Below are positions 3,215-55,567 of a stretch of DNA of 64,000 bases, piece by piece (position 1 is the stretch's first letter; every line of letters begins with the position of its first letter). The stretch spans positions 2,816,001 to 2,880,000 of the forward strand of contig OY969474.1 of NCBI GenBank assembly GCA_963700145.1, read 5' to 3'. A program made the position numbers and the translations under genes. The notes beneath the pieces were generated by a model, which was given only the letters and a program-made list of their open reading frames with translations, ran no database searches and was not told where the DNA came from. Origin of the DNA: an uncultured Acidobacteriota bacterium. GTDB lineage: Bacteria; Acidobacteriota; Thermoanaerobaculia; Multivoradales; UBA5704.

Positions 3215-4447
3215 TTAGGAAGAACAATGATGCTTCGCGGCGACCGCCTCCACGTGTGGCGCCCAAGGAGTGACCTTTGCCCCATCCAAGCGGCGGAACT
3301 CGTAAACCTGCCGGCAGGCTGACGGCACATTGCCAAGCTGATCGTAAGCTTGAATCAGCAGCCAGAACGTCTCGATCCGGCCAAGATCTCCAAGAACATA
3401 ACGGTTGCGCGCCTCCTCTAGGTGCGGGATTGCCGCCTGCGGTTGCCCAGCCCGCAGCTCCAATTCTCCATAGAGCCGATGCAACGCAGGCCGATCTGGG
3501 TCCAGGCGCAAGCCAGTAGAAAGGGCTGCCCTCGCCCTACTCAGCATGTTGAGGGCGAGAGCCGCATGCGCCAACTCGCCATAGGCGTCGACCCGCTCGG
3601 GTTCACGCACGCTAGCCTGCAGGAGAAACGGATACGCATCGGCGAACCTTTCCCTGCCGTTGAGGTAATGTCCAAGGTTGAACAGGTGCTCTGCCGAGTC
3701 CGGCCGCTGTTTCACCGCCGCTCGGTAGTGATCCTCGGCAGCCCGGACATCCCCAAGCCTCTCCTCGGTCGCTGCGAGATTAGAAAGAATCTCCGCCTTT
3801 CCGGGCGCGAGCTTCAGGGCGTCGCGAAATTGTTTCCGGGCCTCGGACCATTGTCCATGCTCGAAGAACGCCACGCCTTGTGTGACCAGCCGCTCCTTCC
3901 ACCAGTTGCAGCCCGCTATCCCCATAATTGTAGCCAGCAGGAGGCTCAGCAAGGCTGCGGTCGGCCAACCGGCCCAGTGTTCGCTGCGCTTGATGAACGG
4001 CCCCGGCAGCAACTCGCCACCTTCCCCGGGGCCGGGCACTTTGCCTCGTATGCCAGCAAGGAGCCTTCGGAAGGCCTCTTCATCGTCGATGCCGGCGCGG
4101 AAGTCAACCCAGGCCAGGAGGCGGAGGAAACGGGGAACCTCACCTTTAGTGGTCCAACCGGGCAGCAGCACTGGGATCACCCGGATCGATTGGTCGCGGA
4201 CCCGTTCGGCTAGCGCCGAACGCATCTCTTGATTCTGCCAGGGCCCGAGCTCCTTGCCGAGAAAGACAGCGCAGGTGCGACTCTCGTCGAGTGCTTCCTC
4301 CAGCGCCTCCTCCCAAGGGTCTCCGGGAATAAGGTGCCATTTGTCGAGGAACGGCTCAAGTTTTTCCTCCCGAAGCTTGCGAGCAATGTGCTCAATGGCT
4401 GGCTTATCGGCGTTGGCATGGCTGAGAAAAACGTCGTAGCGGGGCAT
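3215..4447 (-). CDS. TIR domain - transmembrane helix - TPR protein
   Basis: YDVFLSHANADK...FLDKWHLIPGDPW...WQNQEMRSAL...VIPVLLPG is a TIR_2 signature with the catalytic-position Glu; TM segment AALLSLLLATIMGIAG; several TPRs follow. Confidence 0.9.
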   Translation of the reverse strand: MPRYDVFLSHANADKPAIEHIARKLREEKLEPFLDKWHLIPGDPWEEALEEALDESRTCAVFLGKELGPWQNQEMRSALAERVRDQSIRVIPVLLPGWTTKGEVPRFLRLLAWVDFRAGIDDEEAFRRLLAGIRGKVPGPGEGGELLPGPFIKRSEHWAGWPTAALLSLLLATIMGIAGCNWWKERLVTQGVAFFEHGQWSEARKQFRDALKLAPGKAEILSNLAATEERLGDVRAAEDHYRAAVKQRPDSAEHLFNLGHYLNGRERFADAYPFLLQASVREPERVDAYGELAHAALALNMLSRARAALSTGLRLDPDRPALHRLYGELELRAGQPQAAIPHLEEARNRYVLGDLGRIETFWLLIQAYDQLGNVPSACRQVYEFRRLDGAKVTPWAPHVEAVAAKHHCSS

Positions 4448-12784: not shown

Positions 12785-15139
12785 CTAGAGTTCCAGCCGC
12801 CGCAGCCGCAGGGCGTTGCCGAGGACGGAGAGCGAGCTGAAGCTCATCGCCGCCGCGGCGATCATCGGCGAGAGCAGGAGGCCGGTGAACGGGTAGAGGA
12901 CGCCGGCGGCGATCGGCACGCCGAGGGCGTTGTAGACGAAGGCGAAGAAGAGGTTCTGGCGGATGTTGCGCATCGTCGCCTCGGAGAGGCGGCGGGCGCG
13001 CAGGATGCCGCGCAGGTCGCCCTTGACGAGTGTCACGCCGGCGCTCTCCATCGCCACGTCGGTGCCGGTGCCCATCGCGATCCCCACCTCCGCCTGCGCC
13101 AGGGCCGGCGCGTCGTTGACGCCGTCGCCCGCCATCGCCACCTTCCGCCCCTCGCCCTGCAGGCGCTTGACGACCTCCACCTTCTGCTCCGGCAGCACCT
13201 CGGCGATCACCTCCTCGATCCCCAGCCGCCGCGCCACCGCCTCGGCCGTCGTCTTGCTGTCGCCGGTCACCATCATTACCCGCAGGCCCTGCTCGCGCAG
13301 GGCGCGGAGCGCCTCCTCCGTTCCCTCCTTGATCGGGTCGGCGACGCCGAGGAGCCCGGCCGGACGGCCGTCCACGGCGACGAACATCACCGTCTGCCCG
13401 TCGCGCCGCAGTTCTTCGGCGCGGTCGCCGGGCGCGCCGAGCGCGACGCCCAGCTCGTCCATGAGCGCGCGGTTGCCGAGCGCCACCTGCCGTCCCTCGA
13501 CGGTGCCGCGCACCCCCTTGCCGGTCGCCGATTGGAACTCCTCGGCGCGCCCCGGCTCGACGCCGCGCTCCTCGGCGCCGGCGACGATCGCCGCCGCCAG
13601 CGGGTGCTCGCTGCCGCGCTCCAACCCGGCGGCCAGACGCAGCAGCTCGCGCTCGTCGAAGCCCGCGGCGGGCTCGACCGTCACGAGCCGCGGCTTGCCG
13701 AGGGTGAGCGTGCCGGTCTTGTCCACGACGAGGGTATCCACCTGCCGCAGCACCTCGATCGCCTCGGCGTCGCGGAAGAGGACGCCGGCGGTGGCGCCCT
13801 TGCCGGTCGCCACCATGATCGAGACCGGCGTCGCCAGCCCCAGCGCGCAGGGGCAGGCGATGATGAGGACCGCCACCGCGTTGACGACGGCGTAGGCCAG
13901 CCGCGGCTCGGGCCCGACCAGCGCCCAGACCGCGAAGGTGACGACGGCCGCCAGCACGACGGCCGGCACGAACCAGCCCGACACCTGGTCGGCCAGCCGC
14001 TGGATCGGCGCCCGGCTGCGCTGCGCCTCGCCGACCATGCGGACGATCTGCGCCAGGAGCGTCTCGGCGCCGACGCGCTCGGCGCGGACGACGAGCGCGC
14101 CGGTGCCGTTGACGGTGGCGCCGACGACGCGGTCGCCGGGGTTCTTTTCGACCGGCATCGGCTCGCCGGTCACCATCGACTCGTCCACCGCGCTCGCCCC
14201 CTCCTCGACGACGCCGTCGACCGGCACCTTCTCGCCGGGGCGGACGCGGAGGCGGTCGCCGACCTGCACCTGATCGAGCGGCACGTCCTCCTCGCCGCCG
14301 TCGGGACGGAGGCGGCGCGCGGTCTTGGGCGCCAGGCCGAGGAGGGCCTTGATCGCGGCGCCGGTGCGGCTCCGCGCCCGCAGCTCGAGGACCTGGCCCA
14401 GGAGGACGAGGGTGACGATCACCGCCGCCGCCTCGAAGTAGGCACCGACCTGGCCGTGCGCGTCGCGGAAGGCGGCCGGGAAGAGGCCGGGCGCGAGCCG
14501 CGCGGCGAGGCTGTAGAGGTAGGCCACGCCGACCCCGAGGGCGATCAGCGTGAACATGTTGAGGGCGCGGTGGACGAGCGAGTACCAGCCGCGGATGAAG
14601 AAGGGCCAGCCCCCCCAGAGCACGACCGGCGTGGCGAGGAGGAGCTCGAGCCAGCCGAGGGCCCGGTGCGGCAGGAGCCGCGCGAAGGGGTCGCCCGGCA
14701 GCATCATCCCCATCGCCAGGACGACCAGCGGCAGGGTGAGCACGGCGCTCACCCAGAAGCGCCGCGTCATGTCCCGCAGCTCGGCGTTCTCCTCCTCCCC
14801 GGCCGCCCCCGTCGCCACCCGCGGCTCGAGGCCCATGCCGCAGATCGGGCAGAACCCCGGCCGATCGCGCACGACCTCGGGGTGCATGGGGCACGTCCAC
14901 TCCGTCCCTGCCGCGGGGGCCGCTGCCGCGGGCGGCGGCGGAGACGGCCGGTGGGCGACCGGATGCACGGCGTGCTCCGCTGCGGCCGCACCGCCGCCGA
15001 CATACCGCTCCGGCTGCGCGCGGAACTTCTCCAAACAGCCGGCGCTGCAGAAGAAGTACGTCTTCCCCCCATGTTGGGCGCGGAACCGCGCCTTCTCCGG
15101 ATCCACCGTCATGCCGCAGACCGGATCGAGCGCTGTCAT
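12785..15139 (-). CDS. copA: Copper/silver-translocating P1B-type ATPase with YHS and CPMH metal-binding domains
   Basis: Start [10 protein letters not shown]; [38 protein letters not shown] and MSFSS motifs. Confidence 0.95.
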
Positions 15140-15630
15140 TCGATCTCCTCGAGCTTGGCCTTCATCCAGTCGATTTCGGTCTGCTGCGAGGCCACGATGC
15201 CGGCGCACAGCTCCTTGATCTCGGGGTCGCGGATCGGCGCTTGCTCGCACATGAGGAGCGCGCCCGCGTGGTGCGGGATCATCGACTTCAGGAACTGGCG
15301 GTCCGAGATGGCCGACTGCTGCCGGATCAGGAACCAGAAGGCCAGCAGCGCCACCGCGCCGGCGGCGAGGATCAGGCCGTTGAGCTTCGCATTGGGATAC
15401 ATGCCCCACATGAGCGCCAGCTCGAGGACCGCCATGGCGGCGGTCATGAGCCCCGCCATGTAGAACTGGTTGGTGTTGGGCAGCGCGTTGGCGAACCTGT
15501 CGACCATCGCGTACATCAGGACGTACATGCTCGCGAACGACAGCGCGAGCATCGCCAGCAGGCGGACGTAGTGCCCTCCTCGCTGCGCCTTGTCATGCTT
15601 GTCATGTTTGTCCTGCTTCGCGTGCTCCAT
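15136..15630 (-). CDS. DUF305 (CopM-like) Met-rich membrane protein
   Basis: [16 protein letters not shown]...SQQTEIDWM. Confidence 0.85.
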
Positions 15631-27785: not shown

Positions 27786-28892
27786 ATGCTCCGGGCTCCC
27801 CTCCTCGCCGCGCTCCTCGGCCTGGCCGCCGCCGCGCCGGGGTGGGCGTTCGCCGACGACGCTGGCGCCGTCCTCTGGCACTTCGACACCGGCGGCTGAC
27901 TCTTCACCGCCCCCGCGGTCGCGGAGGACCTCCTCTACACCGGCGCCTGCCCCGGCAACTTCTACGCTCTCGAGCGCGCCACTGGGCGGGTGCGCTGGCA
28001 GTTCGACACCGCGCGCGGCGGCGGCCCCAAGGCGCTCTTCCACGGGCACCCGGTGGTCGCGGGCAACCTGGTCATCACTCCGTCCGACGGCCGGCCGATC
28101 TCGTCCGTCTACGCCTTCGACCGCGCCACCGGAGCGCTGCGCTGGGAGTGGCCGGCCGAGGGCGGGGTGGAGGCCGACCTCGTGCTAGCCGGCGGCCGCG
28201 TGCTCGCCCTCACCGGCACCGCCGAGCTTGCGGCGCTCGACGCGCGGACCGGCAAGGAGCTGTGGCGACTGGCCCCGGACGGCCCGCAGCCGCGGCAGGA
28301 GCTCCACAAGAGCGCGCCGGCGGCCGGGGAGGGCCGGGTGTTCTTCGAGAGCGCCGTCGGCCGCCTCTACGCCGCCGACCTCGGCACCGGCAGGGTGCTC
28401 TGGCAGCGCGACTTCGGACTCGACGTCACGACCTCGCTCCTGCTCACCAAGCGAGGCTTGTTGATCGGCCTCGCCGACGGGCGAATCGTCCGGCTCGACC
28501 CGAAGACCGGTGACGTCGAGACCGCCCTGGCGGTGGACGGCGTGCCGCGCGGCCCGCTGGTGCTCGCCGAGGGCGTTCTCCTCGTCCTGCTCGACAGGGA
28601 AGGGACGCTGCTGGCGGTGGAGGAATCGCTCGCCAAGACCCTCTGGCGGCGCGAGCAGGTGGGCAAGTGGAGCGCACCGCGGCCGACCGTGCGGGGCGAC
28701 AGCGTGCTGATGGGCACCGCGCAGGGGGAGCTCCAAGCCTACGCGCTACGCGACGGCGCGCCGCGCTGGCGTTCTGCCTTCGAGGGCGTGCTGCGCGGGA
28801 TCGGCGTCGCCGGCGACGCGCTCTACGTCGGCACCGAGGGCGGCCGCCTGTACGCCTACCGGCCCGATGCTGGCTCGCCTCGCTCTCGCTAG
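27786..28892 (+). CDS. Exported PQQ-like (BamB-like) beta-propeller with in-frame UGA at codon 38, candidate selenoprotein
   Basis: ATG 27786, signal peptide, LWHFDTGG-TGA(27897)-LFTAPAV...GACPG...RWQFDT in frame with the 27990 ORF; CCGC-GGTC-GCGG hairpin at 27913-27924. Confidence 0.75.
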
Positions 28893-29177
28893 CGGCGCGG
28901 TCGCGCTTCTGCTGTTCCGCCGAGCAGCGGTGGCCGCTGCGGCACCCGACCGCGGCCTTGCTGGCGCGCCTGGCGGTCAATCTGATCCTCGCCGCGGGAG
29001 CGTTGGGGGTGCCGGCCTACGCCGCGCCCGCCGACAACTGGCGGCGGCCCGACGGCGCACCGGCCCGGCGCAGCGAAGCGCTCCCAGGGCGGCCGGAGGA
29101 CTTGGCGGAGTGACGCAGAACGCCCCGGCGTCAGACGGTCTTTAGAATTAGGAGCGCGACCCACAGGAGATAAGGAC

Positions 29178-30923
29178 ATGACTCGATCTTCGGATCCATT
29201 CCCGACAGACGCCGCCGGTCTGCCCGAGGCGCGCCCCTCCGAGCCGGTCGACCTCGGCGACGGGGACCAGTTCGACCTTCGCATCGCGCCGGTGGCGAAG
29301 CAACTCGGCGGCGCGACCGTGCGGATGCTGGCCTACAACGGCTCGATTCCCGGCCCGACGCTGCGAGTGCGGCAGGGGTCGAGGCTCGTGGTCGACGTCG
29401 CCAACGAGGGCGACCTCGAAGCGACGGTGCACTGGCACGGGCTGCGCCTGGAGAACCGCTACGACGGGACGGCCGAGACGCAACCGCCGATCCCCATCGG
29501 CGGCAGCTTCACCTACGAGATCGAGTTCCCGGACCCGGGCGTCTACTGGTACCACCCGCACATCCGCGAGGACTACGGCCAGGAGATGGGCCTGTACGGC
29601 AACATCGTGGTCGTGCCGGCTGAGCCGGACTACTGGCCGCCGGTCCACCGCGAGCTCACCCTCACTCTCGACGACATCCTGCTGGAGGACGGCACGGTCG
29701 CCCCGTTCGACCGGTCGCACCCCACGTACACGGCGATGGGCCGGTTCGGCAACGTGCTGCTGGTCAACGGCGAGCCCGAGCTGGCGCTCGCGGCGCGGCA
29801 GGGCGAGGTCCTGCGGCTCTACCTGACCGACACCGCGAACACGCGGGTCTTCAACGTCGCCGTGCGCGGCGCGCGCATGAAGCGCGTCGGCGGCGACAGC
29901 GGGCACTACGAGCGGGAGGAGCTGGTCGAGAGCGTGGTGCTCGCGCCCTCGGAGCGGACCGTGGTCGACGTCCTGTTCGACCGGCCCGGCCAGGCGACCC
30001 TCGAGCACCGCACGCCCGGCCGGACGTACACGCTGGCCACGATCGCCGTGAGCGACGAGCAGGCGGAGCCGTCGCTGGCGCCGCGCTTCGCGGACCTCCG
30101 CACCAACCCCGACCTGGCGGCCGAGCGCCAGCGGATCGCGCCCTATCTCGAGGCCGCGCCGGACAAGACGCTCGCCCTGGTCGCCGAAATGGACATGGGC
30201 GCGCCGGAGCTGCCGGCGGGCGCGGCGGTCGAGTACTACTGCCCCATGCACGCGGAGGTGGTCAGCGCCGAGCCGGGCCGGTGTCCGAAGTGCCACATGA
30301 AGCTGCTCCCCCGCGAGGCCGCGGCACCGGCATACGCGTGCCCGATGCATCCCGAGGTGCGGAGCGCCGAGCCCGATCGCTGCCCCAAGTGCGGCATGAA
30401 GCTGGTGCCGGCGCAGCTCGTGCCCGAGCCCGGGCACGGCGAGCACCAGCACGGGCCTTCCCACGGCGATGACGGCGGGCACCCGCACGAGCACGACGGG
30501 GACCAGGCGCCCGAGCACCTCGGCATCGAGTGGGAGGACGACATGGTCGAGGTAAACCGCATGACCACCCCGGCCAACATGCGCTGGAAGCTGATCGACC
30601 GGGCGACGGGCGCCGAGGGCGCGGCGATCGACTGGCGGTTCCGCGTCGGCGAGCGGGTGAAGATCCGGCTGGTCAACGAGATGGACTCGGATCACCCGAT
30701 GCACCATCCCTTCCACCTCCACGGGGCGGGGCGTTTCCTGGTCCTCGCCCGCGACGGAGCCCTCGAGCCCAACCTCGTCTGGAAGGACACGGTCCTGGTG
30801 CGCACCGGCCAGACGGTGGACATCCTCCTCGAGGTCACCAACCCCGGCGTGTGGATGGCGCACTGCCACATCGCCGAGCACCACGAGAGCGGGATGATGT
30901 TCTGCTTCCTCGTCGAGCCGTAG
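29178..30923 (+). CDS. Three-domain multicopper oxidase with two inserted CPMH heavy-metal-binding domains
   Basis: HWHG, YHPH, HPFHLHG, HCHIAEHHESGM; YYCPMH...CPKCHM and YACPMH...CPKCGM; His-rich linker; no signal peptide visible. Confidence 0.92.
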   Translation: MTRSSDPFPTDAAGLPEARPSEPVDLGDGDQFDLRIAPVAKQLGGATVRMLAYNGSIPGPTLRVRQGSRLVVDVANEGDLEATVHWHGLRLENRYDGTAETQPPIPIGGSFTYEIEFPDPGVYWYHPHIREDYGQEMGLYGNIVVVPAEPDYWPPVHRELTLTLDDILLEDGTVAPFDRSHPTYTAMGRFGNVLLVNGEPELALAARQGEVLRLYLTDTANTRVFNVAVRGARMKRVGGDSGHYEREELVESVVLAPSERTVVDVLFDRPGQATLEHRTPGRTYTLATIAVSDEQAEPSLAPRFADLRTNPDLAAERQRIAPYLEAAPDKTLALVAEMDMGAPELPAGAAVEYYCPMHAEVVSAEPGRCPKCHMKLLPREAAAPAYACPMHPEVRSAEPDRCPKCGMKLVPAQLVPEPGHGEHQHGPSHGDDGGHPHEHDGDQAPEHLGIEWEDDMVEVNRMTTPANMRWKLIDRATGAEGAAIDWRFRVGERVKIRLVNEMDSDHPMHHPFHLHGAGRFLVLARDGALEPNLVWKDTVLVRTGQTVDILLEVTNPGVWMAHCHIAEHHESGMMFCFLVEP

Positions 30924-32019: not shown

Positions 32020-32590
32020 CGGACCGTCCGAGATGGATCCCGGGGTGCCGGAGATTCATTGCCGGACCCTGGAGACCTGTCTCGGGGCTCCGGAGATGAA
32101 TTGGCCATGGCCCGGGATCTCTCGCCGTGCCGCCGCAACTCATCTTCCATAGCCGGAGATCTATCTCTCACCCTCGGAGACCTCCCTCCGGGCATCCGAG
32201 ATGTCCCTCCGGCGACCCACAACCTCTGGCCGTGGTGATGGTCGGCGGCCCGAGAGGAGCTCGTTGCGGCCCTGGAGTGGCGTAACGCCCGCCGGAACTC
32301 CGGAATGTCCTCGCGCGACCTGCAGACGCCCCGGTGGAGCCTCCCGATGTCCTCCCGGGACCTTCGGAACCTCCTGCGCGCCCTCCGGAACCTCCTGCGC
32401 GACGCCGGGAATCGATTGCGCAACGCCGGGAACTGGTTGCGCGCGCTGCGGAACCTCCTCCGAGCCGCTCGGAAAGGATTCCCGGCGCTCCGCAACCTGT
32501 TCCCCGGCCCGCGCAACCCATTCCCACGCTCCGGGAAAGGGTTCCGAAGCCGCCGCAGGACGTTCCACGCCTCCCGCAGGCCATTGGGCG
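32020..32590. repeat. Degenerate 21-bp tandem repeat array
   Basis: GGAGAT-containing units at 21-nt spacing, then CGGAACCTCCTGCGCGCCCTC-type units. Confidence 0.75.
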
Positions 32591-32666
32591 CCGCGCGGAG
32601 GCCGGTCGCCGCCGCTCGGCGGGCGTCGCGGAGTTCCCCCTGGGAAGGCCGAGTACAATTCCGACG

Positions 32667-33096: not shown

Positions 33097-33534
33097 ATGC
33101 GAGCTGGATCTCAGAGTCTGCCACCGCCCGGAGCGGCCTCGCCGAAGGTGACGGCGTCGTCGCTGCTGTCTCTCTTCACCTCGCTCGGGACGCTGGTCTG
33201 TTGCGCGCTGCCGTCGCTGCTCGTGCTCGCCGGCCTGGGCGCGACGGTGGCCTCGACGCTCTCGGCCCTCCCCTGGCTCGTCGCCCTGTCGCGGCACAAG
33301 GCGTCGACCTTCGCCGTCGCCGGCGTCCTCATCGCCGGCAACCTCGGCTACGTCTACTGGCTCGCGCCCCGATTGCGCGCCCGGGCCCTCGGCTGCCCAA
33401 TCGACGACCCGGCCGCCTGCCAGGTGGCGAGCCGCTTCAGCCGCCGCGTGCTCTGGCTCTCGGCCGCGCTCTACGGGATCGGCCTCTTTGCGGCGTACCT
33501 GCTCGGGCCCCTGCTCGCGAGGTTCGCGTCGTGA
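33097..33534 (+). CDS. MerT/MerC-like heavy-metal transport membrane protein
   Basis: LVCCALPSLLVLAGLG Cys pair in TM1; second pair CPIDDPAAC; three TM helices. Confidence 0.8.
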   Translation: MRAGSQSLPPPGAASPKVTASSLLSLFTSLGTLVCCALPSLLVLAGLGATVASTLSALPWLVALSRHKASTFAVAGVLIAGNLGYVYWLAPRLRARALGCPIDDPAACQVASRFSRRVLWLSAALYGIGLFAAYLLGPLLARFAS

Positions 33535-34400
33535 GCGCGCGAGTGCGCACGACGCTCGCCGCGGCGCTCGGTCTCGCGCTCGCCGCCTCCCCGCTCGCCG
33601 CCGCCGGACACGGCCCGGTGTACGGGCTCGCCACGCCGACGCTCGGGCAGGGGCTGTGGAGCCTGGACGTCGCCGCCATGGGGCGCTCGGGGGGCGCGGG
33701 CGAGATGGCGATGGTGCGGCCGATGCTCGGCTACGGCTTGACCGAGGACCTCCAGGTCTCCGTCTCGCTGCCGCTGTCGCTCGACGACGACCCGGGGGTG
33801 CCGCCGGCGCGGATGATGGCGATGATGCCGGGGGTCCGCGACGCCGAGCTCCTCCTCGGCTGGCGCTTCCACCGCCGGGCGCTCGGCGTCGGCGCGCGCT
33901 TCGAGTCGACCGCCTACCTCGGCCTCGAGGTCCCGACCGACGACGTCCGCGCCGGCGTGCGCACCGCGCCGGGGATCCTCGGCGGCCTTGCCACCGGCTA
34001 CGCCTCGCGCAGCCACTACGCCTGGGGCGGCGCCCAGGTCCAGCGCGCGGCGAGCGCGCGCGGCGGCGACCGCACCGGCGACATGGCGATCTGGAGCCTG
34101 GTCTACGGCTACCGGCCGCAGCGCTTCCGCGAGGAGCTCCCACACGCCGACTGGCGCTGGTTCGTCGAGCTGGTGGGCGAATACCGCGGGCGCGACGAGA
34201 TCGCCGGCCGCGCGCTGGCCGACACCGGCGGCCACGAGGTCTTCCTCGGCCCGACGGTGCTCGGGCTCTTCGGGCCCTGGGGCGTCTCCGGCGGCCCGCT
34301 CTTCCCCGTCCACAGCGACCTCCACGGCGACCAGCCGGAGGAGGACGTCCGCTTCGTCGTCAACTTCAGCTACTGGTTCGTACCGAGGAGCACGCCATGA
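33531..34400 (+). CDS. Outer membrane beta-barrel-like protein
   Basis: Signal peptide; mature N-terminal GHGP; Met-rich loop; amphipathic strands; FVVNFSYWF near the C-terminus. Confidence 0.65.
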   Translation: MSARVRTTLAAALGLALAASPLAAAGHGPVYGLATPTLGQGLWSLDVAAMGRSGGAGEMAMVRPMLGYGLTEDLQVSVSLPLSLDDDPGVPPARMMAMMPGVRDAELLLGWRFHRRALGVGARFESTAYLGLEVPTDDVRAGVRTAPGILGGLATGYASRSHYAWGGAQVQRAASARGGDRTGDMAIWSLVYGYRPQRFREELPHADWRWFVELVGEYRGRDEIAGRALADTGGHEVFLGPTVLGLFGPWGVSGGPLFPVHSDLHGDQPEEDVRFVVNFSYWFVPRSTP

Positions 34401-34909
34401 AACGACTCGTTCTGCTCTCGCTCCTGCTCACCTTGCTCGCCCCCGCCGCCGCGGCGCGCGCCGAGCTGCTGCGCATGCAGCAGGTCCTCTTCGGCATGGA
34501 CTGAGCGGTCTGCGCCCACGCCGTGCGCGTGGCGATGCAGAAGATCAAAGGCGTGGAGAAAGTCGAGGTCTCGCTCAACCGCGGCGTCGTCGACCTCACC
34601 TTCCGCCCCGGCAACACCGCGACGGTCGAAGCGGTGCGGCAGGTGGCGATCGACGGCGGCTTCGCGCCCAAGGACGCCGAGGTGCGGATCGCCGGCACGA
34701 TCGTCCACCGCGGCCAGCCCGGGCTCGCGGTCAAGGGCCTCGACGTCGTCTACCTGCTCGTCGACCACCCGAGCGCCAAGGGCCTCGCCAAGCGCCTGCA
34801 CGGCGAGCACGCCGGGAAGGACGTGGTGCTGCGCGGCGTGGTTCCGGAAACCCGGAAGGCAGGGGAGCCGCGCGTGCTGCAGGTCCAGGAACTGGTGCGG
34901 CGCGATTAG
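34397..34909 (+). CDS. Exported HMA/MerP-like protein with UxxC motif (candidate selenoprotein)
   Basis: GAGGAG RBS; signal peptide; FGMD-TGA(34502)-AVCAHAVRVAMQKIKGVEKVEVSL is the HMA GMxCxxC motif with UGA at the first Cys; hairpin immediately 3'. Confidence 0.85.
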
Positions 34910-35112
34910 CGGAAGACCACCTGCCGGAGGCTCTTGTCCTTGTCCTCGAGCAGGATCTTGTTGCCCTTCTCGACCTCGTCGTGGAGGAACTTCTCGGTGG
35001 CGATCGCCTGGCGGACGACTTCGGCCATCGTCACGCCGCGTTTGGCGGCGATCTGCTTGAGGGCCTCGACGGCGGGTTCGGGGAGGTTGAGCGAGGTCTT
35101 GACGTAGCTCAT
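34906..35112 (-). CDS. Ribbon-helix-helix (CopG-like) DNA-binding protein
   Basis: KTSLNLPEPAVEALKQIAAKRGVTMAEVVRQAI. Confidence 0.8.
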   Translation of the reverse strand: MSYVKTSLNLPEPAVEALKQIAAKRGVTMAEVVRQAIATEKFLHDEVEKGNKILLEDKDKSLRQVVFR

Positions 35113-35210
35113 GGGCGGTACTGTAGGCACCTAATAGCCGCCCGTCAATGTGGGGATCCGCGTTGACTCCTCCTATGCATGGGACTACACTCCGGACTCG
35201 TAGGACCAGA

Positions 35211-49784: not shown

Positions 49785-50561
49785 ATGAGGAGCCTAGCTG
49801 ATTTGGCAGCAGATCTCCTTGTTGATGTCGGCCGGACGAAAAAACCTCGTGCTTACGGCTTCACAATAACACTTGATAAGGGTATACCGCAGGCCGACAT
49901 TCGGCAGCTAGCAGAGGTTGCCGGTCCTTGGTGGGATTTTGCCAAGCTGGCATGGGGGAGCATTCTGATAACGCGCGACATTGAAAAGCGTCTTGCCACC
50001 TATGATGAAGTGCTCGTCACTCCAATTCTCGGCGGTACGCTATTCGAATATGCGTGGCTCCATGGCCGCATGAACGAGATGCTTGCTCTCGCACGAGCCG
50101 CCCAAGTCCATATTGAGATCTCGGATGGGGTTGTCGCTTTGCCCCGGGCAGAGAAGCTCCGTGCGATTGAGCGATTTGCTGAATATGTACCGGTTTTCTC
50201 TGAGATTGGTAACAAGGCGGTGCCTATTGTCGCCGACTGGCCGACCCTCGTGAAGGAGGAGTTAGATGCAGGTGCGAAGCACGTCGTAATCGAAGATAGA
50301 GAACTAGGGCCTGAAGGCAGGGAGATCCGCGGTGATCTCGTTGAAACGCTCCTCGACTCTATACCGATGAATCGTCTTGTTTTCGAGGCGATTGAGCGAA
50401 AGCAGCAAACCTGGCTGATACGGCATCTCGGATCGAATGTCAATTTGGGCAATACGCTACCTATGGACCTGATGACAGTCGAGTGCATCAGACAAGGCTT
50501 GAATCACGACACCGTTGATCCGCGATGCTGGAACGTATACAAGCATCGGCCTAGTAAGTAG
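49785..50561 (+). CDS. ComA (phosphosulfolactate synthase)/HSA32-family protein
   Basis: LDKG, DFAKLAWGS, GGTLFE, EISDG, SEIGNK, FEA...QQ, NVNLGN; low-GC codon usage. Confidence 0.8.
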   Translation: MRSLADLAADLLVDVGRTKKPRAYGFTITLDKGIPQADIRQLAEVAGPWWDFAKLAWGSILITRDIEKRLATYDEVLVTPILGGTLFEYAWLHGRMNEMLALARAAQVHIEISDGVVALPRAEKLRAIERFAEYVPVFSEIGNKAVPIVADWPTLVKEELDAGAKHVVIEDRELGPEGREIRGDLVETLLDSIPMNRLVFEAIERKQQTWLIRHLGSNVNLGNTLPMDLMTVECIRQGLNHDTVDPRCWNVYKHRPSK

Positions 50562-50579
50562 CTACGCACCGAGTGCGCG

Positions 50580-52739
50580 CTATTCATCACGCCTTCGTCG
50601 GCGTAGCTCCTCTGCTTGGGTGGCATGAAACGAGATGCGACTCCCCGCGATGCCGGAGGCGAGAAGCGCCAAGAGCGACTTAGGATATTTGTCGAAGGCC
50701 GCCGACCATAGCGGCCCTTCGACATCCTGCGCGAACCTTCCCGCTATATCCAAGAGCTCTTGTGTAAGATAGTTCCCGGTAGGCGATCGTAGCGTCTGGA
50801 ACAACTGCGCGACGACTTCGCGAAGATCATCATAATGTCGTTCCTGCCGACGGCCATAGCGACTGCTGTTCCAGCCATCAGGGTCGAACCAATCCTGATC
50901 GACAAACTCACTCAATCCGTGACCTGAGAGTGCTTCCGCTGTTCGCTCGAAAAAGGACTGCCAGGCTGACGCAGCGGCTCTCGCCGCACAGGGGTGATCG
51001 CTACCTTCCCAAGCGCAAGTGGCGGCGAAAGCACCGTACTGGCAAAATTGAAGGTCGTAAATAAATAGGAAGTCCAGTCTCTTGCCTGCGCCGGCCCGGC
51101 TTTCAGTTCCAGGGACATCCAACAGGTCGCTAACGCCTCCGCCAGCGATAATGGACCCCACCGACCGCCCCTCGATGTGGACTGACGCGGTCTGAGCGCT
51201 CAAGGACGGCGGAAGATAGCGCCCGTACTCGACGGCGGCGATGAGATGAGCGTAACGGAAGGAGTCCACAGCCAATGAGACCTGCTTCACGACGCCAGGA
51301 ATTCGAGAACGCAGCGGCGGGATATAGGACTCCCAGCTGTGATGCACTCCTGCGTGTACCCAAGGATATCCGAGCCCGTAGCCGCGGAAGTCTCCTCCCT
51401 CTTTGTTTGGGAAGCGGATGCGCGCCCTCGCGTCCCAAAGGCGCAGACCTATCGTGGGTAGAGTGCCTGCCGCGACGTCTTCTTTGACAAGGTAGCTGAT
51501 GACCGCCGGTGGAAGCAATGAGATAGCCGCTAATACTGGCTGCTCGTGACGTTCCGCGAGCGCCACGAGACTGCGCCATGCCGACAAAGGAGGCCTCTCC
51601 TGCCAGAGCGTGCTTGCAAGCGCCGAGATGACTGCGGGGGTCTCGACCTTAAGAGAACTGAGTTCAAGTGCGGATGTCAGTCGGACTGATAAGTCGGGAT
51701 CGTGAAGGCCGACACCTAGCCAAGTAATCTTGCTTCGGGCGCCGCCGCGAGCACGGGTTAGCTCTCTATAGGCGGCGCTTCTTACTGACGCGTCAGGGTC
51801 TCCAAGGCTGCGTTGCAGAAGCGGTAGCCCCGTGGCATCGCGATGAGCGATATAGCCGATTGCCTCCACGGCGCTCTTCCGCACCTCCGGTCGAGAATCG
51901 CGCGCGCAGAGCTCCAGCGCCCCGCGGGCACGCTTGTAACGGACAGGAAGACCGTGGCGCGCTACAAGATTCGCGGTATGCTGCCTTACACGAGCGTCAG
52001 GATCCCAGAGTCCAACTACGAGGGCGCGCAGGGTTTTTCGATCGAGGTGTTCCTGTGCCGCTAGTAACCGAAGCGCATAGCTGCGAACCGCGGCATTGGT
52101 CGCCTTAGTCGCATAAGGAGGTAGAAGCGCCTGCAGCAGGTCCCGATCAATCGTTTCTTTCAAGACCCGGTCTGCATGCCAGCGTACCCAGTGATCGTCG
52201 TCGGCCGAGGCTCGCACGAGTGCTTCAGCCCTCTCGTCTGATGGCATTGAAGTGGCGGCGAGTGCCTCAGCTGCGCGCCAGCGAACGGAGCGACAGGGAT
52301 CAGACTGTAGTACTCCCGCGAGAGCCGGAAGGGTGTACGGGGGAGGGCCAATTTTCCTAAGGGCTTCAACGGCACGCCATCGCACAGAGGCGAGTTTGTC
52401 TCCAGTCATGGCCGACAGGAGTGCGGGTATAGCAGCATCAGCTTCGCGCCCCAGGCTCAGAATGGCGCTTGCGGCCCGCAGGCGATCCATTGCCCCGGCT
52501 GAGCCCAGCAGCGCAGCAAATCCAGCGACCGATTCTCCCACCGGTAGGCCGGGGGGCACACGAGGCTCCTCCGGCGGCGCCGCGAAATGCCATCTCTTTA
52601 GGAATCGCGGCGGCAAGACCAGGCGGACACGGTCACCCTCCACAGTGGCCACAGCCCCCAGCTGACGGGGACGTCGGAGGCCCTCAAACCAGTTTGGCGT
52701 CGCTACCCGAAGGGTCATACCACTAGGCTCAGTCCCCAT
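50580..52739 (-). CDS. HEAT-repeat protein with unknown C-terminal domain
   Basis: Repeated D...VRW.A.EAL / DPDARVR / DPDASVR units; start codon uncertain (52775, 52739 or 52718). Confidence 0.8.
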   Translation of the reverse strand: MGTEPSGMTLRVATPNWFEGLRRPRQLGAVATVEGDRVRLVLPPRFLKRWHFAAPPEEPRVPPGLPVGESVAGFAALLGSAGAMDRLRAASAILSLGREADAAIPALLSAMTGDKLASVRWRAVEALRKIGPPPYTLPALAGVLQSDPCRSVRWRAAEALAATSMPSDERAEALVRASADDDHWVRWHADRVLKETIDRDLLQALLPPYATKATNAAVRSYALRLLAAQEHLDRKTLRALVVGLWDPDARVRQHTANLVARHGLPVRYKRARGALELCARDSRPEVRKSAVEAIGYIAHRDATGLPLLQRSLGDPDASVRSAAYRELTRARGGARSKITWLGVGLHDPDLSVRLTSALELSSLKVETPAVISALASTLWQERPPLSAWRSLVALAERHEQPVLAAISLLPPAVISYLVKEDVAAGTLPTIGLRLWDARARIRFPNKEGGDFRGYGLGYPWVHAGVHHSWESYIPPLRSRIPGVVKQVSLAVDSFRYAHLIAAVEYGRYLPPSLSAQTASVHIEGRSVGSIIAGGGVSDLLDVPGTESRAGAGKRLDFLFIYDLQFCQYGAFAATCAWEGSDHPCAARAAASAWQSFFERTAEALSGHGLSEFVDQDWFDPDGWNSSRYGRRQERHYDDLREVVAQLFQTLRSPTGNYLTQELLDIAGRFAQDVEGPLWSAAFDKYPKSLLALLASGIAGSRISFHATQAEELRRRRRDE

Positions 52740-54108
52740 CCTGGATCTCAACAAGCATGTCGCTACGCCAGCCATGCTTCTGGGTCGATCTGAAGATTGG
52801 AGACGACCTCAAATATTCGTCCGGGCGGAGCGCGCGCGGAATGAAAGCGACATCCGACTCCCTGATATGGCTGCCACGCACCGCTGTAATTTTGTGAACG
52901 AGATGGCGCACTCTCCGCATTTCCACTCCAGGAGAGATCCGCCAGAAGGTGCGAAGTACACCGAGGCTGATGTGCGTCACATGAGGGAATCGTTGGTGCA
53001 ACAACGTGACTGCCACATACACGCGTTCAAGGCGCTCAAGCTGCTCGTCAGCCTCACGGCCGCCAACCGCTGCGAGTGTCAGTTCACCATCCGTCAACCT
53101 CGACTTGAAATCATCAAATTTACTTCCCTGCGCGGGCTGCTTTCCACTTCCGGCAAAAACCCAAACACAAGGCCTAAGGTAAACTGCATTACCTTCACGG
53201 ACATACATGCTCGCTTCCAGGGGAAGAAGAAACTGCCCATACCAATTACCCCCGTCATCATCAATCTCGTCCACGAAAACGAGAAGTGGTCGAGGGGAGT
53301 TAGCTTGATCTGTCGCGAGCGCGTCGAGGCGAGTAATAAGGTCTGCTCGCTGGGCCATCTGGCTAAGGTCAATCTTCCGCCAATCAGCGTTGAGACTCGT
53401 TGCAATTCCCTCGATCAAGGCAGATTTGCCTGAGCCTGGCTTGTCAACAAGCAGACAACTTATACTCCTCTCGGGAGCGGATTGTCTGTTGATAAAGCTG
53501 TCGACGAGTCGATACAAATAAGAGGCGGCGTCGCGCCGTTGCTTCGTGAGGGCTATGTAGTTGCGCGCAGCTGACAGCCCTCGCCAGGACTGGAACACAG
53601 GGCGACTGTCATTATTCTCCGTAATGATCGTTATGATGCCGAGGCCCGTTCGGCTCTCAGTCCATTCTCGCTCGCATTGCTTCCATTCGGCTGGTCGGAT
53701 TGTATAAGAAGCTGATTCCTTGACGTCTTCATCTTCGCGCAGGTCTGGCCCGTAGCTCACTTCGGACGGCTGATTAGGCCCGCTCAATCGCCGCTCCTCG
53801 TTGCATCGCCACTTGTACGCCTTTCGAGCGGCTTGGCAGAGTGTATGATCGAACCTCGACCTCGGGCTAGGGAAAAGGGTTCTAGCTACAAGGCTAGCAA
53901 AAAATACGCTTGCCTTACCAACTCGCCCGCTCATTGCCGCGAGCTCTTCAGAGCCACTACTGACGTGAATGTGGCCCTTCGCTGGCCCACTTTCGGAAGC
54001 ACACAGAGAGAGCCCGCTCGGCATCGCGACGATCGCGCCGAGTTGTCCCAGAACTGGCTTATGAGCGGCACGTACAGCGGAGAGGTACTGGTATGCCTCC
54101 AGTGAAAT

Positions 54109-55567
54109 GGGGTTGTCCCTCCCGCTGTTGAAAGAGCAATGAGGTGAAGGCGGCTCCTCGGCCCACCTGATCGAGAATCGGGTTGGTCGAATAACCGGCC
54201 CCGCCAGGGGGCCAAGGAGCCGTGATGAAGACGAGAGCAGAAAGGCGGGTGGTGTGGCAAGGGGGCCGTGCGGCGCGCATCAGCCACGGGCTACAAGCGC
54301 TGCTGCGGCCGATGGTCGAGGGCATCGAGGCCAGCCGCCAGGGGCTGCTGGAGCTGTTTCACGCCGCGGGCGTCGAGGCCCTGGGGCGGCAGCTCGCGGA
54401 CGAGGTCGAGGCCGTCGTCGGTCCGAAGCGTCGGCGCAATCCGACCCGCGAGGCGTACCGCTGGGGCTCGACGGCGAGCGAGTTCGTGCTGGGTGGCCGC
54501 CAGGTGGCGCTGCCGCGACCGCGCGTCCGGCGACGCGACGGTGGCGAGATGAGCTTGCCTTCGGTGCGCGCCTTTCAGGACGAAGATCCCTTCACGGAGC
54601 GGGTGATCGAGCAGGCGCTGGTCGGCGTCTCGCAGCGCCGCTACGGTCGGAGCTTGGAGCCGCTCGCAGAGTCGGTGCCGGAGCGCGCGACGAGCAAGAG
54701 TGCGGTCCAGCGCCGGCTGGTGGCGGGGACGCGTCGTCTGCTGGGCGCGTGGCTGCGCCGAGACCTGTCGGACTTCCAGCCCCTGATCCTGATGATCGAC
54801 GGGCTGGAGGTGGCCGGCCACACCCTGGTGGTGGCACTCGGCATCGCGCGCGACGGGACCAAGCGGGTGCTCGGCCTGCGTGAAGGCGCGACGGAGAACG
54901 CGGCGCTCTGTACCGGCCTGCTCCAGGAGCTGTTGGAGCGAGGCCTCGCGATGCCGCCGCGCTTCTTGGCGGTGCTCGACGGCGGCAAGGGGCTGCGCAA
55001 GGCCGTGCGCGCCGTCTTCGGGGACGCAACCCACGTCCAGCGCTGCCAGCTCCACAAGCGCCGCAACGTCCGCGACCACCTGCCCAAGCAGCTCCAAGCC
55101 CGGGTCGACCGCCTGATGGTCGAGGCCTACCAGAGCGCTCGCTTCGACCTCGCCAAGCGTCGCCTCGAGCAGCTTGCCCGCTGGCTCGAGCACGCAGGCC
55201 ACGCGGGCGCCGCGGGCAGCCTGCGCGAGGGCCTCGACGAGACCCTCACCGCCTTGCGGCTGAAGCTGCCCGACGCTCTGCGCCGGTTGCTCGCCTCGAC
55301 CAACGCGATCGAGAACACGATCGGCTCGATCCGTACGACGACGCGCAACGTCAAGCGCTGGCGCGGCGGCGACATGGTGCTGCGCTGGGTCGCCCTGGCG
55401 CTGTGTGACGCGGAGGCTGGCTTCCGGCGTGTCAAGGGACATCGGCACCTCGGGGCTCTCGAGCTCGCGCTCGCGGCGATCGAGGAACCGACGAACACCA
55501 AGGCCGTGGCATGATCAACCGAGCCGCTTTCCCTCTTTCGGCTTTCAACAGGGAACGGGGCATCCCC
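54109..55567 (+). mobile_element. Complete IS256-family insertion sequence (1459 bp)
   Basis: Imperfect TIRs GGGGTTGTCCCTCCCGCTGTTGAAAG / CTTTCAACAGGGAACGGGGCATCCCC; 8-bp TSD AGTGAAAT at 54101-54108 and 55568-55575. Confidence 0.95.
54222..55514 (+). CDS. IS256-family (mutator-type) transposase
   Basis: LMIDG, VLDGGKGL, QRCQLHKRRN, STNAIE DDE motifs. Confidence 0.95.
   Translation: MMKTRAERRVVWQGGRAARISHGLQALLRPMVEGIEASRQGLLELFHAAGVEALGRQLADEVEAVVGPKRRRNPTREAYRWGSTASEFVLGGRQVALPRPRVRRRDGGEMSLPSVRAFQDEDPFTERVIEQALVGVSQRRYGRSLEPLAESVPERATSKSAVQRRLVAGTRRLLGAWLRRDLSDFQPLILMIDGLEVAGHTLVVALGIARDGTKRVLGLREGATENAALCTGLLQELLERGLAMPPRFLAVLDGGKGLRKAVRAVFGDATHVQRCQLHKRRNVRDHLPKQLQARVDRLMVEAYQSARFDLAKRRLEQLARWLEHAGHAGAAGSLREGLDETLTALRLKLPDALRRLLASTNAIENTIGSIRTTTRNVKRWRGGDMVLRWVALALCDAEAGFRRVKGHRHLGALELALAAIEEPTNTKAVA

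Follow-up and report, generated by a model that had tools for sequence, protein, structure and literature searches.

A probable MerP-like carrier with a predicted selenocysteine in its metal-binding site, encoded in a copper island of an uncultured Acidobacteriota bacterium

Bacterial selenoproteins are mostly redox enzymes, and their relatives with cysteine (Cys) far outnumber those with selenocysteine (Sec). Table 1 of a 2026 review lists 119 selenoprotein families and has no entry for PF00403, the heavy-metal-associated (HMA) domain; the nearest entries are a P-type ATPase with a UxxC motif (U standing for Sec), the UxxU family NF041115, which appears there as 'putative mercuric reductase'-like, and a MerT-type 'putative mercuric transport protein' (PMC13188914). 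Sec in a MerP-type protein has already been predicted, to judge from one table row of the Global Ocean Sampling (GOS) survey, 'Mercuric transport protein MerP', which gives two Sec sequences from ocean samples without motif or domain (PMC2398784). For the Acidobacteria, Table 2 of an earlier survey gives three selenoprotein families with four proteins (PMC1794560). Our literature search found no description of a periplasmic HMA selenoprotein family of the UxxC type, and the main text of the BSepDB paper contains neither the words heavy, HMA, MerP or copper nor names beginning with Acidobacteri- or Gemmatimonad-; such sequences could still be present in the supplements to the BSepDB and GOS studies. 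Here we describe the gene at positions 34397-34909 of a 64-kb stretch of DNA from an uncultured Acidobacteriota bacterium (contig OY969474.1; this whole stretch is called the window in the following). Judged from the sequence and its relatives, it is very probably a selenoprotein gene in which the UGA at codon 36 stands for Sec. As a whole, the locus is best explained by an exported Sec-x-x-Cys HMA carrier for copper or mercury that belongs to a large, mis-annotated family, an explanation we consider probable.

Most likely the gene encodes one exported protein of 170 residues and not a 35-residue peptide followed by a separate open reading frame (ORF) of 128 residues. Its features are as follows.

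34385..34390, + strand: Shine-Dalgarno-like GAGGAG, 6 nucleotides (nt) 5' of the ATG at 34397, read directly in the sequence
34397..34909, + strand: predicted selenoprotein gene of 170 codons with a single in-frame TGA and a TAG stop at 34907-34909
34397..34462, + strand: signal peptide (residues 1-22), ending in ARA before E; cleavage site judged by eye
34502..34504, + strand: UGA predicted to be read as Sec, residue 36, the U of a U-x-x-C metal-binding motif
34466..34708, + strand: HMA domain, residues 24-104 (Pfam, AlphaFold2, Foldseek)
34709..34906, + strand: C-terminal beta-rich domain, residues 105-170 (AlphaFold2)

The frame starting at 34397 translates as MKRLVLLSLLLTLLAPAAAARA followed by ELLRMQQVLFGMD, TGA and AVCAHAVRV, the residues directly behind MKRLVLLSLLLTLLAPAAAARA being ELL, and there is no second stop before the TAG. 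The signal peptide lacks a lipobox Cys. Residues 32-39 form the metal loop FGMD-U-AV-C, so that the TGA occupies the first Cys position of the HMA motif GM.C..C. For the ten closest loci reading frames were built; read at full length the orthologues comprise 161-174 amino acids, and all ten possess an N-terminal hydrophobic leader of a similar kind. The leader, the FGMD-UGA-AVC loop, the HMA domain and an additional C-terminal domain, which an earlier note on this DNA had described from the letters alone, were all recovered by translation, Pfam and AlphaFold2.

The evidence that carries the Sec assignment comes from the relatives. A scan of one genome per species yielded 33 loci, the 13 best of which were read through in frame. 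The earlier note had named the pairing of Sec and Cys in homologue alignments as the check to be made, and a genome devoid of Sec machinery together with TGC or TGT in all close homologues as the outcome that would speak against Sec. We found TGA at the Sec column in seven of the 13 loci and Cys in the other six, a pairing that supports the reading as a selenocysteine metallochaperone. TGA is present in the window and in L001, L002, L003, L004, L005, L006 and L009, which amount to six distinct sequences. TGC occupies the column in four Acidobacteriota loci (L007, L008, L010 and L011), and the more distant loci L012 and L013 carry Cys there, too, as do the proteins P0061, P0076, P0097, P0114, P0126 and P0137 and a paralogue in L003. 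The TGA loci come from Thermoanaerobaculia (L001), Gemmatimonadota (L003-L006) and Vicinamibacterales (L009); L001 is 95% identical to the window and L005 and L006 are nearly identical to each other, the proteins of the TGA loci being 36-94% identical to that of the window.

Upstream of the column the pattern AEL..RQ.IFGMD is kept in all forms and ends in FGMD or YGMD, and the Gly and Asp codons directly 5' of the TGA show only synonymous differences across the loci. Together with the leader, this indicates that the stretch 5' of the TGA is translated in this frame. TGA terminates 11 of the 25 Pfam-supported ORFs in the window and is thus an ordinary stop in this DNA, which excludes a recoded genome.

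Downstream of the UGA we detected a hairpin resembling a bacterial selenocysteine insertion sequence (SECIS, bSECIS in bacteria), which is part of the minimum free energy (MFE) fold.

34516..34532, + strand: SECIS-like upper hairpin with a 6-bp stem CCACGC/GCGUGG and the loop CGUGC, -9.5 kcal/mol, part of the MFE fold
34509..34541, + strand: extended stem with the lower helix UCUGCG/UGCAGA, found in the window and L001 only

The stem begins 11 nt past the UGA, and the distance from UGA to loop is 17 nt. The fdhF element of E. coli likewise has its upper hairpin 11 nt after the UGA and G-U in the loop. Published bSECIS rules ask for a loop of 3-9 nt, a stem of 4-16 bp, a G in loop positions 1-2, a spacing of 16-37 nt and at most -7.5 kcal/mol (Fig. 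2 legend, PMC13188914). With a loop of 5 nt, 6 bp, 17 nt and -9.5 kcal/mol the upper hairpin agrees with all four rules. Thereby the hairpin CCACGC-CGUGC-GCGUGG of the earlier note was found in its place; the lower stem UCUGC/GCAGA that the note had added exists in the window, where it joins the upper hairpin in the MFE fold, and in L001, but is not conserved in the other TGA loci.

The 23 bases TGCGCCCACGCCGTG[C/A]GCGTGGC are identical in all seven TGA loci except for one base of the loop. We compared codons with a conserved amino acid and a degenerate code at U+1 to U+10 with those elsewhere. In the TGA forms, six of eight such codons at U+1 to U+10 were invariant at the nucleotide level, compared to three of 25 elsewhere (p = 0.0017, one-sided Fisher test). 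Although mutually closer, the four Cys forms gave 3 of 10 invariant codons in this region and 36 of 84 elsewhere. They vary at TGT/TGC, GCA/GCG, CAT/CAC, CGA/CGG and GTC/GTG, and at U+6 a GGC (Gly) replaces the GCC (Ala), by which the stem is broken.

A second gene of the same island has an in-frame TGA with a comparable hairpin. The gene at 27786-28892 (+ strand) encodes a PQQ/BamB-like beta-propeller with a TGA at 27897-27899 just past the signal peptide (WHFDTGG-U-LFTAPAV), followed by a hairpin with a GGUC loop; as the earlier note had said, the spacing is alike in both genes, with 17 nt here as well. The close database homologues of the propeller all begin past the TGA column, three of them exactly one codon past it, and its distant full-length relatives carry S, A, K or T at this column, not Cys.

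The earlier note had also expected standard annotation to split the selenoprotein gene into two ORFs, and the databases bear this out. A word-indexed search found 18 homologues among 5.8 billion proteins, and all 18 are 125-139 amino acids long and start just past the U column (MCAHAVRV, VCAHAVRV, MTCAH, MRVA). One of them, P0007 (133 amino acids, 'heavy-metal-associated domain-containing protein' at NCBI), is exactly the downstream ORF of L004, the DNA of which has TGA. A family profile built from the first 19 sequences was searched against 1.84 billion cluster representatives. With E <= 1e-3 as the limit it matched 2148 proteins; 638 of these reached E <= 1e-10, and 28 reached E <= 1e-30. 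The 150 best-scoring representatives fall into the following classes.

Full length with C.xC: 6 of 150
Full length with W at the column (a gene caller reading TGA as Trp): 2 of 150
Start 1-2 codons past the column: 44 of 150, one of them without the second Cys
Start some codons further on, within helix alpha-1: 98 of 150

Starts past the U column were therefore found in 142 of these 150 in all, and the TGA form appears about 20:1 over the Cys form among them. The members come mostly from Acidobacteriota- and Gemmatimonadota-type records. The result is a systematic annotation error which removes signal peptide and metal site, and with these cut off the family members are listed in the databases as short cytoplasmic 'HMA domain proteins'.

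Pfam assigned residues 32-73 to the HMA family (PF00403) with 30.9 bits (gathering cut-off 24.8, E 3.7e-7). An AlphaFold2 model calculated from a 72-row alignment reached a mean predicted local distance difference test (pLDDT) of 90.5 and a predicted template modelling (TM) score (pTM) of 0.82. In this model residues 24-104 adopt the beta-alpha-beta-beta-alpha-beta fold of HMA domains, and strand beta-1 (residues 24-32), which lies upstream of the TGA, is predicted at high confidence. The last HMA strand continues into residues 105-167, which add four more strands and one helix. Foldseek matched the HMA half alone, with TM scores of 0.74-0.87 to solved HMA domains including TTHA1718 and CopZ, and of 0.83 to the copper domain of HMA7 (3dxs) and to MerP (1osd). 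A profile search of PDB sequences with the carrier likewise returned HMA domains only. For the C-terminal domain there was no Pfam family and no relative among the PDB sequences in this search, and no conserved Cys, His or Met in its alignment; it is probably a docking or scaffold domain.

The carrier is the last gene of a row which includes the following partners.

33522..34400, + strand: outer-membrane beta-barrel of 12 strands, 292 amino acids; its TGA stop overlaps the ATG of the carrier (ATGA)
33097..33534, + strand: distant MerT-like membrane protein of 145 amino acids with three helices, LVCCALP in helix 1 and a C-x7-C loop
32667..33029, + strand: small Cys-rich ORF that opens the row, five Cys in 25 residues past a hydrophobic leader; common to L001 only

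In 11 of 11 loci, with Sec and Cys forms alike, the barrel gene lies immediately upstream of the carrier. Carrier and barrel are most likely co-transcribed and translationally coupled, the barrel belonging to the structural class of COG4313 and FapF. The AlphaFold2 model of the barrel (pLDDT 90.0) is of the 12-strand type, with FapF (E 6e-8, TM 0.55-0.63) and the COG4313 channel 4rl8 as the nearest Foldseek matches. Its 622 homologues of about 285 amino acids have neither a functional name nor a Pfam domain. The mature N-terminus GHGPVYGLATPTLG is conserved (GHGP), and so are a MAMMP motif and the C-terminal NFTYWF; the barrels of the window and L001 have a tail of six residues past the usual terminal YWF. 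A protein atlas gave PF13557 as a lead for the window barrel, and in L003 a barrel called as PF13557 by Pfam stands next to a Cys-type carrier of like two-domain architecture. This paralogous module is the first of two tandem barrel-carrier modules in L003 (1362-2903 and 5072-6525); its carrier reads DGLSCAFCAYG, the second module is of the TGA type, and the two are separated by a thioredoxin-fold gene, the MerT-like gene and an MFS transporter.

For the Cys-form pair of L007 (barrel residues 23-285, carrier residues 23-168) a complex prediction gave a median ipSAE of 0.48 (0.48, 0.43, 0.57), with 0.00 for the best of three controls, a partner pLDDT of at least 86 and at least 91% of the contacts shared among the runs. 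Among the pairs used for calibration, 116 of 157 solved complexes and 2 of 215 mismatched pairs attained the mark. Since the range up to 0.60 holds only 18 of the 157 solved complexes and both passing mismatches, this weakly supported contact was not counted as evidence.

The MerT-like gene adjoins the unit in the window and in all six Sec-type loci with flanks (L001, L003, L004, L005, L006 and L009); the sequence of L002 begins within the barrel gene and was left out of this count. Aligned by hhalign with the bona fide MerT that L004 encodes, the profile of six MerT-like orthologues reached a probability of 80.8% (E 1.3e-5), and this match pairs the CC pair and the loop Cys. Whether the small Cys-rich ORF, for which no family match was found, belongs to the unit is uncertain.

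The window itself is a copper island, with a DtxR-type regulator, two multicopper oxidases, a cupredoxin, a P-type ATPase, a DUF305 gene, two OEP genes and an RND pump. The ATPase (12788-15592, - strand) is of the copper type and has YHS and HMBD N-terminal domains without an HMA domain, and the multicopper oxidase at 28986-30923 has HMBD repeats. In L004 (3400-9670, Gemmatimonadales) a MerR and a MerC-like gene precede the Sec-type unit and a merR-merT-merP-merA-merB row follows it. This genome thereby carries an ordinary Cys-type MerP besides the Sec-type carrier, and the unit adjoins the mer row without lying within it. A gene for a MerR-family regulator is located ahead of the unit in L009, and RND/OEP genes were found in L004 and L005. 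The neighbours of the Cys-form loci are CotH, DUF4956, VTC and FAD-oxidase genes. These neighbourhoods tie the Sec form to genes for soft metals (copper, mercury), unlike the Cys form in those four genomes.

From this arrangement the unit, with the MerT-like gene, the barrel gene and the MerP-like selenoprotein gene last, may be read as a soft-metal relay. The UGA at codon 36 would be read as Sec by means of the short hairpin 11 nt downstream, which lies within the codons of helix alpha-1; insertion would need SelB and tRNA-Sec encoded elsewhere in the genome. After export and cleavage of the leader, a MerP-like HMA domain with the site Sec-x-x-Cys instead of Cys-x-x-Cys would face the periplasm, where its selenolate/thiolate pair could capture a soft metal, presumably Cu(I) or Ag(I) in the copper island of the window and Hg(II) in the relatives adjoining mer operons. 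The metal might then pass by ligand exchange to the CC pair of the MerT-like protein, as from MerP to MerT, and the barrel might serve as the passage through the outer membrane, the metal being handed to or from it. Selenium would provide a fully deprotonated, softer and faster-exchanging ligand. The analysis itself shows the reading frame, the conserved TGA, the Sec/Cys pairing, the fold, the synteny and the constraint that the hairpin is under at the nucleotide level. From these we infer Sec insertion, the identity of the metal, the direction of transport and the contact between the partners.

Several results weigh against this picture. The genes selA, selB and selD and tRNA-Sec are absent from the 64-kb window and the 13 scanned loci, and a Pfam scan over all sizeable ORFs of the window revealed no Sec machinery, MerA or MerR. 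TGA was observed directly just in the seven loci with DNA, so that in the 142 shortened proteins it is deduced from the start positions. The hairpin reached a folding z-score of only -1.1 to -1.4 in window DNA of 71% G+C, and 20-26 of 200 shuffles folded as stably as its region. When all 1041 TGA triplets of the window were scanned for uninterrupted hairpins with the published bacterial SECIS geometry, a SECIS-legal hairpin of -7.5 kcal/mol or lower followed 240 of them, and one of -9.5 kcal/mol or lower 140 (13%). The stem is invariant across the seven TGA loci and there are thus no compensatory changes, leaving no countable covariation, and the single-sequence MFE folds of L002 and L004 favour another pairing. 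An Rfam scan of the whole window gave no family at gathering score and, around the hairpin, only a sub-threshold small RNA match on the opposite strand. The hairpin by itself is therefore no evidence for Sec, and the case stands on the comparison with the relatives. As to the relay, the likeness of the 33097-33534 protein to MerT appears distant, its NCBIfam matches to the MerT/CopZ-fusion selenoprotein (E 0.029) and MerTP (E 0.13) lying far under the cut-offs. The four Cys-form loci have neither the MerT-like gene beside them nor metal genes nearby, which means that a metal relay may not hold for the whole family, and no pattern of metal ligands in the carrier separates copper from mercury.

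Gene callers treat the TGA as a true stop in 142 of the best 150 representatives and in all 18 word-search hits, and TGA does normally end genes of the window. Taken at face value this would mean a 35-residue leader peptide and a separately translated annotated ORF (GTG at 34523 to 34909). Such an ORF would lack the signal peptide, strand beta-1 and the first metal ligand of an HMA fold, its called starts range from 1 to about 12 codons past the TGA, the callers picking differing starts without a conserved one, and the 35 codons 5' of the TGA encode a peptide that is conserved across phyla and continuous with the full-length Cys homologues, which makes a true stop very improbable. A sequencing or assembly error with TGC or TGT misread as TGA, or a pseudogene, would need nothing but the bare stop codon in a metagenome-type assembly. 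It is scarcely credible, as the same TGA occurs in seven independent assemblies from at least two phyla in frames otherwise intact and under purifying selection, and 142 of 150 cluster representatives share the truncation point; the recurrence in seven assemblies alone rules out error or decay. Alternatively, a near-cognate or suppressor tRNA might insert Trp, Cys or Gly at the UGA, the hairpin merely stimulating this read-through. The missing Sec machinery in the available stretch, the two database entries with W at the column and the frequency of stable hairpins after TGA in the window would agree with it. However, gene callers set to code 4 are the simplest source of the W entries, and every non-TGA homologue examined has Cys at the column, as is classic for Sec/Cys pairs. 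The hairpin shares its spacing and a loop with G-U with bacterial SECIS elements, and TGA terminates 11 of 25 confident genes of the window. We regard such read-through as quite unlikely.

A further explanation accepts the selenoprotein and differs on its function: U-x-x-C might be a periplasmic redox centre (thiol/selenol-disulfide) instead of a metal site. Most known UxxC selenoproteins are oxidoreductases (PMC13188914), the gene row of L003 includes a thioredoxin-fold gene, and metal genes are missing near the Cys-form loci. Against this, the fold is that of HMA and not of thioredoxin, GMDUxxC occupies the position of the metal-binding loop, and the Sec-type loci are accompanied by MerR-family regulators, mer, RND/OEP and copper genes and the MerT-like protein, so that a redox role is unlikely. 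Reading the protein as a Sec-containing metal carrier, we would propose, more tentatively than the carrier itself, that it stands for an uncatalogued Sec-dominant family with hundreds of clusters at 50% identity, mainly in soil-type Acidobacteriota and Gemmatimonadota. Selenium would act in it as a metal ligand and not as a redox centre, the protein might be the periplasmic link of an envelope relay of barrel, Sec-HMA and MerT-like protein, and nearly all annotations would be shortened at the Sec codon.

If so, the use of selenium would be linked to the handling of copper and mercury in abundant, mostly uncultured soil phyla. Sec in a metal-transfer site would furthermore provide a system for asking what selenium gives in terms of affinity, exchange rate and resistance to oxidation in the periplasm, and the locus would offer a first clue to the function of two widespread families that lack functional annotation, the barrel and the MerT-like protein.

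Some further features of the window were noted. Between a divergently transcribed beta-helix gene and the gene row of the carrier there is a direct-repeat array (32168-32660) with a period of about 21 nt and the core CGGAACCTCCTGCGCG, accompanied by inverted repeats of the GGAA/TTCC type; it could be a regulatory array or an ORF with heptad repeats. A ribbon-helix-helix gene (CopG/FitA-like, 34906-35130, - strand) converges on the selenoprotein gene, overlaps its TAG and is 100% identical in L001. There, about 2.8 kb are inserted between these two genes (L001 6445-9277, compared to 34904-34907 of the window); the insert holds an ORF of 909 amino acids without Pfam match, and L001 has another 1.6 kb extra upstream. 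A stretch with 58% G+C, compared to 71% for the window, contains HEAT-repeat, AAA and ComA-like genes beside a Mutator-family transposase (50000-54000 and 54195-55511); this is probably acquired DNA. At 3218-4447 (- strand) a TIR-domain protein fused to TPR repeats is encoded, with TPR proteins on either side, an architecture known from defence-type genes.

Compared to known systems, the carrier resembles MerP (TIGR02052; 1afi, 1osd) in its signal peptide and single HMA domain, the GM.C..C loop and the MerT-like neighbour, and the match to TIGR02052 covers residues 1-89 including the leader. It scores only 40.9 bits against a cut-off of 92.55, however, and differs from MerP by the predicted Sec in place of the first Cys, by the extra C-terminal domain of 65 residues, by its barrel partner and by its location outside a mer operon, the window containing neither MerA nor MerR. 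CopZ and Atx1 share the HMA fold and loop, but the scores for NF033795, NF047957 and NF033794 (39.3, 34.0 and 28.6 bits) are far from the cut-offs of 91, 85 and 95, and CopZ is a cytoplasmic single-domain protein while the carrier has a signal peptide and a second domain. In copper resistance, CopA, CopB, CopC and CopD are a multicopper oxidase, an outer-membrane protein, a periplasmic carrier and an inner-membrane protein, respectively. By analogy, the parts of the copper island may be seen as paralleling this set, except that the barrel and the MerT-like protein have no Pfam match to CopB or CopD.

Among the selenoproteins, no model of NCBIfam release 20, including those for selenoproteins, was passed by the 34397-34909 protein. 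Its best match is NF041115 (UxxU_metal_bind, E 1e-10), which stands for small selenoproteins of the HMA type that have Sec in the metal loop; the carrier reaches 41.6 bits of the required 95, and NF041115 has two Sec (UxxU) in a profile of 74 positions, in contrast to the carrier with its signal peptide, UxxC motif and second domain. The MerT/CopZ fusion selenoprotein NF045683 is matched by the carrier at positions 134-225 (E 6.3e-6) and by the MerT-like protein at 19-109 (E 0.029), with 25.8 and 13.8 bits compared to a cut-off of 375. NF045683 is a fusion, whereas the MerT-like and HMA parts are encoded here by separate genes with the barrel gene between them. The 'putative mercuric transport protein' selenoprotein (PF02411) is likewise echoed at this locus. 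The P-type ATPase selenoprotein (TIGR01525; Table 1, PMC13188914) has UxxC, too, and belongs to a metal-transport family with HMA-type N-terminal domains, and the best PDB sequence matches of the carrier family are HMA domains of copper ATPases; there the domain is a cytoplasmic part of a large pump, and the carrier is a free exported protein of two domains. With the MerP row of the GOS survey a comparison is possible at the level of the table entry only, two sequences there against hundreds of clusters here. This row agrees with the statement of the earlier note that Sec-containing HMA-type proteins had been predicted before, but the conclusion drawn from it, that the novelty lies mainly in the context, understated a big Sec-dominant family with an architecture and partners of its own. 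What we describe is very probably a genuine selenoprotein and, with its large Sec-dominant family, its own second domain and its own partners, a new variant on the theme of Sec in HMA/MerP-type sites.

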